The notes under the pieces: model-generated
Told to the model about the DNA's origin: nothing
Databases searched by the model: none
The model's input: only the letters and a program-made list of their open reading frames with translations
Shown here: positions 3,335 to 20,668 of the stretch, piece by piece
How positions within the stretch are numbered: position 1 is the stretch's first letter
How the letters are laid out: every line of letters begins with the position of its first letter
Position numbers and translations under genes: made by a program
Source of the DNA: a virus
Length of the DNA: 23,749 nucleotides
Virus genome (UHGV): UHGV-1361621
Strand: one strand, 5' to 3'

Positions 3335-3594
3335 TGTTAGATTTTCATAAAGTAGTTGATTTTAATAAGTTGCCCCTTGTCCCCGCTACGGCTTTGAATA
3401 TGACGCAAGTTATTTGGGAGGATATGAGCATTAAAGACCGTCAAGAAGGTATCACAGCACTACAAAACGATATTGACAAAATGACTACTAATGACTATAT
3501 CATTCACAACGTGGAAAACTTGCAAGAGCACATGAATGAAATGAGAGAAATGCAAAAAGCAGCCGACCACATGGAAGAACATTTAAATGACTAG
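3334..3594 (+). CDS. hypothetical early protein (86 aa); last gene of the rightward operon
   Basis: TGGAGGAAA SD. Ends at the convergent non-coding region. Confidence 0.55.
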   Translation: MLDFHKVVDFNKLPLVPATALNMTQVIWEDMSIKDRQEGITALQNDIDKMTTNDYIIHNVENLQEHMNEMREMQKAADHMEEHLND

Positions 3595-3968
3595 CTAGGA
3601 AGTTGTTTATAGAAAGATTTTAATAAATAGTCTTATGAGCTTATATATGAGCTTGTAGGGCTGTTTTTGTTTGTTCTTGATATGTTATAGGAGGTGTGCT
3701 GTAAAATGCTTATATGGGCTTGTATGGAGCTTGTAGAGATATGCTTAGGTGTGTCAAATTGAATTGGAAAAATCACTTTTCTACTTTTTGAGGAGTTAGG
3801 CTTGATAGAAGACCCACCCCGTTATATACATACCCCCTTTAAGTTCCCTTTGAAATTCACGCAAAAAATAAAAAAATAGAAACAACCACAATTTTCAAAA
3901 TAAACTATGATTATCTCTATCTATATCTATACTATACTACTATACTACACTATATACTACTACTCTAC
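3595..3968. repeat. repeat-rich, C-tract-containing non-coding region where early and late transcription converge; candidate cos/packaging (or terminator) region
   Basis: Three copies of GNGCTTGTAKRG (3649-3660, 3715-3726, 3728-3739) are flanked by ATGCTTA repeats at 3706 and 3741, with TGAGCTT doubled at 3637 and 3648. C tracts CCCACCCC at 3813-3820 and CCCCC at 3833-3837. A-rich run 3862-3900. Degenerate tandem TATACTAC octamers at 3928-3968. It holds no convincing ORF. Confidence 0.5.
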
Positions 3969-4241
3969 TCAATCGGTAAGGTCTGTAACATTCTGTTTCA
4001 TTCCATTCAAGAACTTAAACAATGAAGCACACACAAGACCAATGTATACAGTACCAATGAGAGATAGTAACTCTGTGCTTATCATACCTTTGAACACTGT
4101 GTTTCCTGCTACATATACTACCAATACAATAGCTTCAATGCTTAGCCTTTTCTTTACGCTCGGTGTTAAAGTACCTGTGTCTATAAACTCAATTGCCAAT
4201 GCCAATGCTTGCATAAATAAAACTAGTGCTATTTCTTTCAT
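3969..4241 (-). CDS. holin-like membrane protein (90 aa, three predicted TM helices, charged C-terminus); last late gene
   Basis: Hydrophobic segments IALVLFMQALALAIEFI, IEAIVLVVYVAGNTVF and LLSLIGTVYIGLVCASLF, with a polar/charged C-terminal tail. ATG 4241 follows the AAGGGG SD, which overlaps the upstream stop. Confidence 0.55.
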   Translation of the reverse strand: MKEIALVLFMQALALAIEFIDTGTLTPSVKKRLSIEAIVLVVYVAGNTVFKGMISTELLSLIGTVYIGLVCASLFKFLNGMKQNVTDLTD

Positions 4242-8337: not shown

Positions 8338-8628
8338 CTAATTCAATTTAAGACCCTTTGCAAAGTCTTCTAAACCTTTTTCTGCTTTCTCTTCCTCAAT
8401 AGCTGTCTTAACTTTTTCTACCTTAGGTTCAATATAAACCCCCTCAATTTCCATAAGCTTAAACAATGCTTGCTTATCTGGTAGTTTGTGTGTGGTGGTC
8501 ACGTTCTTACCTTTTACAACATCTCGACCATTCGCACCCCTTTGATATTGAACAACCTCTTTTACTTCATCTCCACCAAAAGCTAGAGTTCGTAAAGCTT
8601 CTAACATCTTTTCTTTATCTTTACTCAT
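8338..8628 (-). CDS. small lysine/glutamate-rich protein (96 aa) immediately downstream of TerL; function unknown (TerS-like role not excluded)
   Basis: Its ATG overlaps the TerL stop (TAATG). Confidence 0.5.
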   Translation of the reverse strand: MSKDKEKMLEALRTLAFGGDEVKEVVQYQRGANGRDVVKGKNVTTTHKLPDKQALFKLMEIEGVYIEPKVEKVKTAIEEEKAEKGLEDFAKGLKLN

Positions 8629-10193
8629 TAGCTAAAAAAATCCTCCGCATATTCTTCTTTTTCAATAAACCAATACATTGCGTCACTTAGTGCGTCTGCA
8701 AGGTCTATCTTATCTGCATACCCCTTCTTCTTGATACGCATTAAACCAAAGTCGTTTATTACTGTTTCGGCATTCATCAAATGCACACCAAGTAACTGAC
8801 TATCAAAGTGTAACCTTCCTTCTTGCATAAGTAACTGCATATTTTCTAACGTATTAGACAAGTGGAAGGAGTTTTGTTTAACCTCTTCATAAAATTCAAT
8901 GTCATACGTTTCTTCAAAGCGTCTTAGGAAGTTTGTGGCATGTGCACGGTCATAACATAAAGCAATTGGAACAGCGTCTTTTACACCTTGTGTAGTGAAC
9001 ACCTCCCAAGCTTCGTCACTCTTATTGCTGTCTGTATCGTGCGTGAGCGTTTCTCCTAAGTGTCTAAATTTATCCTCTGCACTTTCTGGCATGATAGGGA
9101 TAGCTTTTACATAATAGTGCCCCTCTTCTCTCCAAACTAACACAGTGCCCCAAACATCTCCCCTAATAGAGAAGTCCGAACCAACCACAACCAGTTTACC
9201 ACTTGGGTCAAGAGTATCACACAAGCAATTATCAACCATTTGTTTTGAGAAAATACTTGTGGTATCGTGCATGCTCAAATTAAAACGTTTAGTGATTACT
9301 TTAGCCATTTTGATAGGATTACCCAAAGCCCCTATAAAGTCGCTCTGTATATCCTCTAATGTGACTGTAAGACCTATTGCGGGGTTAGCCTTGTGATACG
9401 TTTCTGGTTTGTGTACCTCGTCATAATCATCTAAAGCATAATAGAACACCCAACGGGTAAAGTCCTCGTTCCTTACCCATTCTTTCCACGATTTCAATTC
9501 ATCATCATAAGCACCGCCTCGAATGACGTTGTTAGTAGTTGAAATAAACAAGAGCCCTTTATTTTTTCTGAGCCCCTGTCTGATTGTGATAAGCGGGTTC
9601 TTTTTGAATGCTCCGAACTCGTCCACGATTACAAGTTGTTCACGTCCACCGTCCAAGCTATCCTCATTTGAAGCATATACGGTTATTTCTGTGCCTTTAC
9701 TATCCAAGAAAGAATTGTCCTTGACCTTGATTTTATCTTGGTTGATTTTGATTTGGTTTTGGAACAGGTTTATAATCGTCCCCTGTGTGTTTGCCATAGC
9801 CCTAAAGTGTTTCATAAGGATTTGTTGCGCTTGGTCTTTTTTCGTTGCCATAAGAGCTATAACAGCATTAGGCATAGGAAGTAAGAACATAACAACTAAA
9901 GCGATCATGACATCAAGTATTGATTTTGCATTTGACCGACCTACAATAACCACTACTTCCGATACATCATAAGGGATACAGAAGGTTAGAGTAAGTACAG
10001 CTTTGTGATAAGGTATGATTTTAAAACGCTCATTATTTGGTAAGGTCATGTACTCTTCTAAGAAATTAAAAATTTCATCTGCTCTTTTATAGTCAATTTC
10101 ATCTTCTATTTTTAGAGCTTTCTCTTTAAGAGCTACAATTTCAGACCCCCACTCTTTTGAACTGTCCCCTATCCATTCTGTTAGCCTACTCAT
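8628..10193 (-). CDS. terL: terminase large subunit
   Basis: Walker A-like VIVGRSNAKS and Walker B LVIVDEFGAF in the N-terminal ATPase domain. The C-terminal RNaseH-like nuclease domain has acidic motifs VVGSDFSIRGD and DKIDLADALSDAMY. The start is chosen at ATG 10193 (MSRLTEW...), 2 nt after the HNH stop. The track's 10277 start would overlap the HNH gene by 82 nt. Confidence 0.85.
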   Translation of the reverse strand: MSRLTEWIGDSSKEWGSEIVALKEKALKIEDEIDYKRADEIFNFLEEYMTLPNNERFKIIPYHKAVLTLTFCIPYDVSEVVVIVGRSNAKSILDVMIALVVMFLLPMPNAVIALMATKKDQAQQILMKHFRAMANTQGTIINLFQNQIKINQDKIKVKDNSFLDSKGTEITVYASNEDSLDGGREQLVIVDEFGAFKKNPLITIRQGLRKNKGLLFISTTNNVIRGGAYDDELKSWKEWVRNEDFTRWVFYYALDDYDEVHKPETYHKANPAIGLTVTLEDIQSDFIGALGNPIKMAKVITKRFNLSMHDTTSIFSKQMVDNCLCDTLDPSGKLVVVGSDFSIRGDVWGTVLVWREEGHYYVKAIPIMPESAEDKFRHLGETLTHDTDSNKSDEAWEVFTTQGVKDAVPIALCYDRAHATNFLRRFEETYDIEFYEEVKQNSFHLSNTLENMQLLMQEGRLHFDSQLLGVHLMNAETVINDFGLMRIKKKGYADKIDLADALSDAMYWFIEKEEYAEDFFS

Positions 10194-10195
10194 GT

Positions 10196-10483
10196 TTAAA
10201 TTCTCCCCTCTGCTATTAGTTTTGCATAGTCTACTAAGTCCCCGCTTCTTTCTTTTGATTGGTGGCAAGCGTGACACACTACCTCAATAGGTTGGTATAT
10301 AAGTTCTTCCCTGCTGTCTGCTTCCACTTTACCATTTACCCATTGTATCGGTACAATGTGGTGCGCTATAAGGTCATAAGTTTTATAACATCTCTCACAA
10401 TGTCCTACTTCGTTTTTACATTTATTTGCGTAATTCTTCCACATTTGAGAGCCGTATATTTCCCCCTTTGTATATACTGGCAT
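10196..10483 (-). CDS. HNH endonuclease
   Basis: 95 aa carrying CERCYK...HHIVP...CHACH (CxxC/HH/CxxCH). Sits directly upstream of terL, as in cos phages where HNH assists terminase. GGAGG SD. Confidence 0.8.
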   Translation of the reverse strand: MPVYTKGEIYGSQMWKNYANKCKNEVGHCERCYKTYDLIAHHIVPIQWVNGKVEADSREELIYQPIEVVCHACHQSKERSGDLVDYAKLIAEGRI

Positions 10484-17750: not shown

Positions 17751-18260
17751 TCACTCCTTTTCATATATTGTTTTATAGTCAACGGCTTCACAGTACAATA
17801 ATTGTGCTAGTGCGTCCGCTTTATTATCGTCTTTAGTTGGTTCTCCCATAACACGCTCGTAAAGCTCACAGCTTGCGTCCTTACGCTCTTTTCGTTTACC
17901 TTTGATAAGATGGTAGGCACACCACTTAGAGTTCCTTATATTGTAAATATAGCCCTTTGTGAGTGCGTGCATTTTACCCAAGGCATAACCATTCCATTGA
18001 GCTAATTCTATTGAGCCTGCGCTATTGCCTGCCAATATAGGACGCTCTATACAGATGTCATAATCTTGCAAGCCGTTTTCTAAAATAATATCCTCTAGCT
18101 TTTCTACAATAATCAAAGTACGGCTTTTCATGGTAGACCCTTTTGTATAAGGCTTAATAGAACCCACAATAAGTTTTCCCTCTTCATCTCGGAAAGCATA
18201 CCCTGTACCCTCTTTTGATTTAGAGCCTGTACTAAAATCAATACTTAATATTTTTTTCAA
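17751..18260 (-). CDS. RuvC-like Holliday junction resolvase (about 169 aa)
   Basis: Begins MKKILSIDFSTGSK (RuvC-type start with a catalytic Asp) and has the D-ADALAQLL C-terminal motif. The real start is probably TTG 18260, 8 nt after AGAGGAG, overlapping the stop of the small upstream ORF (TTGA). The track's 18296 TTG lacks an SD. Confidence 0.65.
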   Translation of the reverse strand: MKKILSIDFSTGSKSKEGTGYAFRDEEGKLIVGSIKPYTKGSTMKSRTLIIVEKLEDIILENGLQDYDICIERPILAGNSAGSIELAQWNGYALGKMHALTKGYIYNIRNSKWCAYHLIKGKRKERKDASCELYERVMGEPTKDDNKADALAQLLYCEAVDYKTIYEKE

Positions 18261-18451: not shown

Positions 18452-18480
18452 TTGACAGAATTTTAAATCTTTGCTATAAT
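18452..18480 (+). promoter_or_regulatory. early promoter P1: TTGACA(18452-18457), 17 nt, TATAAT(18475-18480)
   Basis: Perfect consensus hexamers at optimal spacing. Confidence 0.7.
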
Positions 18481-18510: not shown

Positions 18511-18538
18511 TATATATGTTACACTTTTGCACATTAAA
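18511..18538 (+). promoter_or_regulatory. conserved 28-bp element copy 1 (TATATATGTTACACTTTTGCACATTAAA); candidate operator or ori element
   Basis: Repeated with one mismatch at 19068-19095. A partial CACTTTTGC repeat lies at 18493-18501. Confidence 0.4.
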
Positions 18539-18577: not shown

Positions 18578-18606
18578 ATTGACATAGGGTGGAAAAGTGA
18601 TATAAT
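18578..18606 (+). promoter_or_regulatory. early promoter P2: TTGACA(18578-18583), 17 nt, extended -10 TGaTATAAT(18598-18606); upstream context CTTGTGATTGACA
   Basis: Perfect consensus with a TG extension. The AAAAAGGAGGT SD follows at 18620-18630. Confidence 0.75.
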
Positions 18607-19067: not shown

Positions 19068-19095
19068 TATATATGTTACATTTTTGCACATTAAA
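19068..19095 (+). promoter_or_regulatory. conserved 28-bp element copy 2 (TATATATGTTACATTTTTGCACATTAAA)
   Basis: 27 of 28 positions identical to 18511-18538. It lies between the stop at 19055 and the SD of the first membrane-peptide gene. Confidence 0.4.
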
Positions 19096-19253: not shown

Positions 19254-19363
19254 TGTTAGATGTTATAAACATAATATGCGGGCTTGTAGCTTGTATCATT
19301 GTTGCTAGTGGTTTGAGTGACTTAATAGCGAATGCTTTAGGAGGTAAGAAAAATGATAGATGA
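19253..19363 (+). CDS. small hydrophobic peptide (36 aa, MLDVINIICGLVACIIVASGLSDLIANALGGKKNDR)
   Basis: TAATG overlap with the preceding peptide gene. GGGGAG SD. Confidence 0.4.
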   Translation: MLDVINIICGLVACIIVASGLSDLIANALGGKKNDR

Positions 19364-19776: not shown

Positions 19777-20668
19777 TTTCGGATATACTGCGGTAGATAA
19801 TGACCCATTCAAAAGGTTAATTACCGCACAAGACCTAAAAGAAAAAGAAGAGTTTCAAGAAGCCAATTCTTGGTACATTAAAGATATACTCCCTAAAGGT
19901 GTAGGGGGTCTTGTTGTTGCACCACAGAAAAGCTTTAAGAGTTCAACGACTTTGTTTATGGCTCACGCTATTGCAACTGGCACACCATTTGGAGAACATG
20001 AAACGACAAAAGCCAACGTTCTTATTATTGATAATGAAGACACAGAATTTACTTTACATCAACGATTAAACGGCTATGACGGCTCACTAGCGGGCTTATG
20101 GTTCTTGACTGGTGGTATATTCAAGATGGATAATAAAGACAATCTGAACAAGCTATACAGCGTCATAAAGGAGTTAGATATTAAAGTAGTTATCTTAGAC
20201 TGTTTGAAAGATATGCTCACTAGTCCCGACAGCTTGAACGATATGCACAAGATGAATGAAATTTTAATGCGTATCACAAAGCTAAAGTTATTGCTCGGGG
20301 ATGTTACTTTCTTAGTAGTGGCTCACGCTAGGAAGGATTGTTTTGACAGGTCTTTAGAAGAACCATTATTCAGAACACGCTCTACCCATGCTCTTGGCTC
20401 TTCTGCTATTGGTGCATGGCATGAAGTATGTTTCACTCTAAGCCCTAAGATAAGCAAAAAGACAGGAAACAAGTATTCTATTATTGAAGTGGAAGCACGT
20501 AACTTTAACTATGATAAGCCAATCTGCGTGGGATATGTTGACGATAGATTTACAATCATAGACCCTACTGTAAAAGTGGAAACAGGCGAACAATTGGAAG
20601 GAGGAGAGGCTACCGAATTTTTAGACACCCTAAAACTAGCGGGAAAAGTTACAGAAATAAATGATTGA
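19748..20668 (+). CDS. RecA-fold P-loop ATPase of the AAA_25/DnaB-C-like type (replication or recombination protein), 306 aa
   Basis: P-loop-like VAPQKSFKSSTTLFMAHAIATG (a degenerate GxxxxGKS/T), Walker B VVILDCL, and the FLVVAHARKD motif that resembles the hhhhHH.RK motif of AAA_25 proteins. Confidence 0.55.
   Translation: MTDNTLRLDDFGYTAVDNDPFKRLITAQDLKEKEEFQEANSWYIKDILPKGVGGLVVAPQKSFKSSTTLFMAHAIATGTPFGEHETTKANVLIIDNEDTEFTLHQRLNGYDGSLAGLWFLTGGIFKMDNKDNLNKLYSVIKELDIKVVILDCLKDMLTSPDSLNDMHKMNEILMRITKLKLLLGDVTFLVVAHARKDCFDRSLEEPLFRTRSTHALGSSAIGAWHEVCFTLSPKISKKTGNKYSIIEVEARNFNYDKPICVGYVDDRFTIIDPTVKVETGEQLEGGEATEFLDTLKLAGKVTEIND

Follow-up and report, generated by a model that had tools for sequence, protein, structure and literature searches.

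Between a plus-strand ORF ending at 3594 and a minus-strand holin ORF (3969-4241) lies a non-coding region, 3595-3968, of a 23,749-nt viral genome (UHGV-1361621; the whole stretch analysed is called the window below). The strands of these flanking ORFs confirm an initial annotation that described a large non-coding stretch at the tail-to-tail meeting point of the early and late operons. Relatives do not keep the ORFs found inside the region, and Rfam gave no family match across 3400-4100. In some relatives (L016, L086, L088) the region is preceded by an additional small ORF. The features of the region and the packaging genes discussed below are collected in Table 1.

Table 1. Features of the operon-convergence region and packaging genes in window coordinates.
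Feature	Position	Strand	Description and basis
Last early-operon ORF, 86 aa	3334..3594	+	left border of the non-coding region; no PHROG and no Pfam match
Left-arm segment	upstream of ~3686		two unrelated versions, not alignable to each other
Early-operon intrinsic terminator	3625..3676	+	19-bp hairpin, arms 3625-3643 and 3648-3666, then T-run TTTTTGTTTGTT; terminator scan
Spacer	3677..3705		identity 0.80; conserved island starts at ~3686
Conserved non-coding island	3686..3749	+	four tandem units: ATGCTTATATG (3706), GGCTTGTATG (3717), GAGCTTGTAGAGAT (3727), ATGCTTAGG (3741)
GCTTRTA array	3706..3749		identity 0.885; changes mostly purine-purine or pyrimidine-pyrimidine, GCTTRTA kept
Left-arm segment	3750..3765		variable
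Putative cos left flank	3766..3794	+	A/T tracts and ...TTTTTGAGGA; identity 0.92; contigs of three relatives stop at G3793
Putative cos core GTTAGGCTT	3795..3803	+	c2/Rc6 annotation, relatives' contig ends; identity 0.97
Conserved right flank	3804..3837	+	GATAGA-AGA-CCCACCCC-G-TTATATA-CAT-ACCCCC; present in c2-type phages, LG75P1, L022 and the window clade
Right flank as aligned	3804..3840		identity 0.90
Late-operon intrinsic terminator	3863..3922	-	21-bp hairpin, arms 3922-3902 and 3894-3874, then U-run 3873-3863
TA-rich TAYAC/TACTA array	3923..3968	.	holin stop to late terminator; 3' untranslated end of the late mRNA
Holin, last late gene	3969..4241	-	phrog_9407, E 5e-35; 58-65% identical to c2-type holins
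96-aa protein downstream of TerL	8338..8628	-	51% to c2 l13
TerL, 521 aa from ATG	8628..10193	-	72% to c2 l12; PF03354 E 5e-52, PF20441 E 4e-85
95-aa HNH-motif protein, directly upstream of TerL	10196..10483	-	51% to c2 l11; phrog_144 HNH endonuclease E 9e-9

The window is a complete genome in circularly permuted form. Its end-to-start join is spanned by a 146-aa ORF, phage LG75P1 is collinear with it on either side of this join, and the same genes are found on an ENA MEGAHIT contig of 23,868 nt (23,749 plus a 119-nt overlap). Because the window is a circularly closed metagenome assembly, its own ends are uninformative on the physical ends of the virion DNA. The nearest deposited genomes are the Lactococcus petauri phages LG75P1 and LG75P3 (OP172812, OP172813), at ~70% nucleotide identity in the late region, while the classical c2-type phages (Ceduovirus) match the window in TerL and tail genes only. 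Gene content is c2-like, with a tape measure, TerL and a holin that is 58% identical to c2 l17; relatives also encode a PF06673 capsid protein. The exact 90-aa holin sequence occurs in 143 public assembly index blocks, 69 of them with contigs of 20-50 kb, and this uncultivated phage type is thus widespread in sequenced samples. Elsewhere in the genome, the divergent early/late control region holds a 28-bp direct repeat, TATATATGTTACA(C/T)TTTTGCACATTAAA, at 18511-18538 and 19068-19095, which may be an operator or origin element. Near it are two plus-strand promoters with perfect sigma-70 consensus (12/12, with a TG extension) at 18452-18480 and 18579-18606.

Both operons end in intrinsic terminators that face each other across the region. 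The RNA of the early terminator folds at -25.8 kcal/mol (z = -4.3), a value that none of 200 shuffles equalled, and that of the late terminator at -19.7 kcal/mol (z = -6.6). Changes in the late stem are nearly all pair-preserving across seven distinct clade sequences. Hairpins with a U-run also flank cos on either side, at corresponding positions, in LG75P1, L022, bIL67 and Rc6, and in weaker form in c2. A second version of 3595-3685, with a terminator hairpin of its own, is found in otherwise near-identical genomes (L070, L072, L073, L081, L101).

The initial annotation had proposed the region as a cos site partly on the strength of its repeats, all of which are present to within 1 nt; two groups of them belong to the terminators, a hairpin nature that it had missed. 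The TGAGCTT doublet (at 3636, not 3637, and at 3648) is real, but it forms the early terminator stem: both copies, together with the first copy of GAGCTTGTAGGG, lie in the terminator arms. Likewise, the TA-rich octamer array described as running up to the holin stop exists, with exact copies of TATACTAC at 3933, 3941 and 3953 and a Tandem Repeats Finder array at 3927-3964 (period 13, score 53), but its start belongs to the late terminator hairpin, which it forms on the minus strand together with an A-rich tract. Comparable TA-rich arrays, differing in their unit, occur in all lineages.

The element that carries the cos assignment had also been overlooked. The sequence GTTAGGCTT, which occurs once in the window (3795-3803), matches base for base the c2 feature labelled '9 base, 3' extended single-stranded right cohesive end, cosR' (NC_001706 22164-22172) and to the annotated 'cos site' of Rc6. 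The initial annotation had suggested a comparison with the cos regions of lactococcal prolate-headed phages, and this comparison aligned window 3790-3840 with the mapped c2 cos: the window reads GAGGA-GTTAGGCTT-GATAGAAGACCCACCCCGTTATATACATACCCCC, and c2 reads AAAGA-GTTAGGCTT-GATAGAAAACCCACCCCCTTTATATTACACCCCC. The site lies at the early/late operon convergence, ~165 bp (160-170 bp) past the holin stop, as it does in c2-type phages. Relatives L003, L081 and L082 carry single-base variants of the core (GTTATGCTT, GTTAGGTTT, GTTAAGCTT). These variants fall at central positions, and the first four and last two bases are constant.

Conservation extends well to the right of the core. The pattern GATAGA-N3-CCCACCCC-N-TTATATA-N3-ACCCCC is common to c2-type phages and three other related lineages, and a pattern scan of viral contigs found this flank in ~25 c2-type genomes, including c2, Rc6 and bIL67; several c2-type records start exactly at GTTAGGCTTGATAGA. 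The C tracts singled out in the initial annotation (CCCACCCC at 3813 and CCCCC at 3833, within 3813-3837) proved to be part of this conserved flank. We consider 3804-3837 the strongest candidate for a sequence-specific recognition element. Megablast of the region against the phage collection gave no match. A distant blastn search with 3550-4000 returned 67 records, all of them Lactococcus c2-type phages, with matches at the record extremes or over annotated features, namely the 'cos site' of Rc6 and, in c2 (L37091), a '3' protruding cohesive end'. Searched by itself, the left arm (3595-3800) had no homologue in deposited phages, and a metagenome scan with a clade-specific 20-mer gave chance-level matches only. 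In LG75P1 (L003, OP172812), whose record is not cut at cos, a 74-aa hypothetical protein is annotated across the site (20321-20545); this gene call is probably spurious, since the reading frame is not conserved in the window.

Public assemblies provide evidence on physical ends. Contigs of 23-24.4 kb were found via homologues of two window proteins, and five contigs of relatives terminate exactly at the cos site. Three of these, from three samples (L067, L073, L074), stop at ...TTTTTGAGG (= ...CTACTTTTTGAGG, ...CACTTTTCTACTTTTTGAGG), which corresponds to window 3793; one of them (L073) is a full-length contig of 24,071 nt. In the other two, from two samples and an LG75P1-like sub-clade (L059, L060), a TruSeq adapter is fused to ATAGAGACCCCACCCC (ATAGAG), corresponding to window 3805. 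Another two full-length contigs break off 45-100 nt right of the site. As end-repaired libraries lose a 3' overhang, the gap between blunt contig ends marks the overhang. That gap is AGTTAGGCTTG (3794-3804, 11 nt), which extends the published 9 nt by one base in either direction; judged by these contig ends, the gap would be 11 nt and not 9 nt. In the older c2 record L37091, too, the cohesive end begins at the extra A. We give the overhang as 9-11 nt because the left-end and right-end contigs come from different sub-clades. A right-end contig from the window sub-clade and a left-end contig from the LG75P1 sub-clade were sought, and the contigs found either ran through cos or broke in the TA-rich array.

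The packaging genes point to the same group of phages. That HNH and TerL are both encoded, as the initial annotation held, is clear for TerL from its Pfam matches. For the HNH-motif protein, the PHROG match and an invariant CxxC...HH...CHxCH motif agree with the claim, but the Pfam HNH score (18.4 bits) is under the 21.4 cut-off; PDB sequence and fold searches with this protein gave no significant match. A homologue sits directly upstream of TerL in c2 itself (l11, NC_001706 15246-15533, annotated there as 'hypothetical protein') and in all c2-type genomes examined. A packaging HNH (HrdP) has been stated to be absent from Ceduovirus in a 2026 paper (PMC12967558).

Profile searches recognised no small terminase. 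The 96-aa l13 homologue is a weak candidate for this missing recognition subunit of c2-like phages, and its predicted structure could fit either a small terminase or an HU-like DNA-binding protein. Its model (pLDDT 75.7) comprises a helix, a beta-hairpin, a helix and a long helix. Against predicted viral structures, the top two matches were the Ceduovirus and GE1 homologues, followed by weak matches labelled 'terminase small subunit' (E 1e-3 to 6e-2). Against PDB structures, HU/IHF and the SPP1-like small terminase 3zqq appeared at E 0.1-0.8, which is not significant, and a PDB sequence search was uninformative. We know of no c2-like phage in which a small terminase or a terminase-binding site has been demonstrated.

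We next consider the repeats to the left of the core. The 12-mer GNGCTTGTAKRG has three exact copies and no more in the 23.7-kb window (3649, 3716 and 3727, each on the plus strand); with one mismatch allowed there are six matches against 0.93 expected, a number that none of 100 shuffles reached. ATGCTTA is present at 3706 and 3741, and Tandem Repeats Finder reported an array at 3708-3735 (period 10). The four tandem units at 3706-3749 make up an array of GCTTRTA cores spaced 10-11 bp apart, or about one helical turn. Left-arm conservation was assessed as mean pairwise identity per segment in 17 aligned clade sequences (Table 1), and the arm proved to be a mosaic, with the GCTTRTA island conserved between two variable segments. 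On this sequence-level evidence, the array (3706-3749) is a reasonable candidate for a binding array of terminase or an accessory protein. Bending sites had also been suggested for the region; a crude scan for AA/TT periodicity at 10-11 bp reached at most the 96th percentile of the genome, and intrinsic bending is therefore not supported.

Two likenesses between array and core were also seen. The repeat unit GAGCTTG-TAGAGA (3727-3740) resembles AGGCTTGATAGAAG across the top-strand nick (3799-3812), except for one inserted A, and in LG75P1 the cos core (TATGCTTG) and the left-arm motifs (TATGTTTG) both have T at the corresponding place. Either could be due to chance. A doublet of GCTTGTAGCTTGTA at 19282-19295, within a small coding ORF, was taken to be a coincidence.

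Whether these repeats have any part in packaging is less certain than the cos assignment. They may be products of duplication or slippage, partly terminator stem, or sites bound by an unrelated regulator or nucleoid protein, and we consider this quite possible. The early terminator hairpin includes the TGAGCTT doublet and the first repeat copy, the units differ by several substitutions among close relatives, and the putative R sites published for c2 differ and are AT-rich. LG75P1 is without the tandem arrangement at the aligned position, and GCTTGTA-like words, which recur to the left of cos in LG75P1, L022 and c2, ranked near the top of a 7-mer enrichment test over four lineages, but their 4-7 fold enrichment is not significant after correction for 16,384 7-mers. 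Such an origin fits less well with a conserved island (0.885) between variable segments, in which substitutions are mostly purine-to-purine or pyrimidine-to-pyrimidine and keep GCTTRTA, with a spacing that puts the units on one face of the helix at 50-90 bp from the nick. A more far-reaching proposal would be a two-part recognition of cos, through the right flank and the helically phased GCTTRTA array (its core resembling GGCTTG-ATAG at the top-strand nick), in which the array is bound by the l13-type protein as a small-terminase or HU-like factor, and TerL with the l11-type HNH protein leaves an 11-nt overhang (AGTTAGGCTTG). We think this unlikely.

For the region as a whole, other functions find little room. 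It could be a spacer between converging terminators and nothing else, in a phage that packages by headful (pac) or has its cos elsewhere, for example in the 18.4-19.1 kb promoter region. Some of the repeats are indeed explained by two strong terminators, the assembly of the window closed into a circle, and the next-best match to the cos 15-mer in the window is at 18147, with three mismatches, which is chance level. This reading is nevertheless very improbable, given a core equal to the mapped c2 cos, a conserved flank, a TerL 72% identical to that of a cos phage, and contigs of relatives from independent samples that end at one fixed position. The repeat-dense, AT-rich sequence with iterated motifs might also suggest a replication origin or another cis element, instead of or besides cos, and to this we give hardly any weight: the analysis brought no sign of a replication function, the conserved block coincides with the mapped cos, and c2-type phages have their origin in the early/late promoter region.

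The region 3595-3968 is thus very probably the cos site of a c2-like lactococcal siphophage, placed between converging early and late intrinsic terminators. The basis for this reading is the homology of site, position and packaging genes to c2, the contig ends of relatives, and both terminators. The proposal of the initial annotation that cos lies here is borne out by the c2-identical core, the conserved flank, the position, the packaging homologues and those contig ends.

By homology with c2, packaging may proceed as follows. Terminase, consisting of TerL and most likely the adjacent HNH-motif protein, would make staggered nicks around GTTAGGCTT (3795-3803) during packaging of concatemeric DNA, probably at ~3803/3804-3805 on the top strand and ~3793-3794/3795 on the bottom strand in this genome. 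Virion ends would then be complementary 3' single strands of 9 nt (c2 annotation) or up to 11 nt (3794-3804). One genome end would be that of the early operon (...TTTTTGAGG), and the other, (G)ATAGAAGACCCACCCC..., would lead into the holin and late genes; the direction of packaging we can only infer. Recognition would most likely be via the right flank (3804-3837), and the GCTTRTA array of the left arm may serve as an auxiliary binding array, both contacts being presumed. After injection, the 3' overhangs would re-anneal, and both operons would terminate before the site.

These results establish no new principle, since this type of site is already known. What they provide is a set of expected physical genome ends for an uncultivated lactococcal phage lineage, and with the ends fixed by the cos site, genomes of a common lineage can be oriented and annotated correctly. 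They also extend the c2-type cos (identical core and flank) beyond the genus Ceduovirus and show which of its bases are under constraint. What is new is modest: a conserved GCTTRTA island, a gap of 11 nt suggested by contig ends, and the presence of an HNH-motif gene beside TerL in c2 itself. To our knowledge, packaging recognition has never been dissected in this group of dairy and fish-pathogen phages, and the GCTTRTA array, the l11 HNH-like protein and the l13 protein offer three inexpensive experimental targets.

The closest known system is that of Ceduovirus, whose c2-type cos was reportedly mapped in the 1990s by Lubbers et al. in 1994 and Perrin et al. in 1997. It shares with the window the core, the right flank, the position at the operon convergence beside the holin stop and the flanking terminators, as well as a TA-rich array of the (TAC)n type before the holin and homologous TerL, l11, l13 and holin. 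The two differ in that megablast against Ceduovirus covers only 7% of the window genome, at 72-76% identity, and no similarity to the DNA of c2-type phages was detectable in the left arm (3595-3790); in place of the three-to-four-unit GCTTRTA array of the window, c2 has a single GGCTTGTAT and an inverted GAGCTTAA. The same 9-nt cos has been described at the ends of ten further Ceduovirus genomes, together with repeats beside it and sites proposed for terminase (Chmielewska-Jeznach et al., 2020; PMC7150918). Supplement S1 of that paper is the source of the AT-rich putative c2 sites R1-R4, which differ from the window repeats. LG75P1 and LG75P3 share the cos flank with the window and have the core GTTATGCTT and a partly alignable left arm; unlike c2 and Rc6, LG75P1 has no cos annotation.

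With lambda cos (cosQ-cosN-cosB), the likeness is one of general logic, in that iterated motifs to which terminase could bind lie beside a nicking site. In lambda the overhangs are 5' and 12 nt long, with R sites for gpNu1 and a bend made by IHF, whereas the window site is expected to give a 3' overhang by homology with c2; no similarity to lambda R sites was found in the window region. Lambda-type 5' ends were considered and rejected, as the c2 homologue is annotated as 3' extended and there is a gap, not an overlap, between the contig ends of relatives.

Finally, HK97-like phages and the Skunavirus sk1 resemble the window in having a small HNH-motif gene beside a PF03354/PF20441 TerL, and they resemble the c2-type site in their 3' overhangs of ~10 nt. 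HNH-assisted cos packaging in HK97-like phages is said to have been described by Kala et al. in 2014. Their cos sites are without sequence similarity to that of the window, and the gene order of the window (tape measure, HNH, TerL and l13, amid tail genes) is unusual by comparison. An HNH gene beside a TerL of this type is the arrangement of HK97-like/Skunavirus cos phages, in which the HNH protein is thought to help nick cos (PMC12967558). By analogy, the arrangement in the window suggests the same division of labour in nicking as in HK97-like and sk1 packaging.
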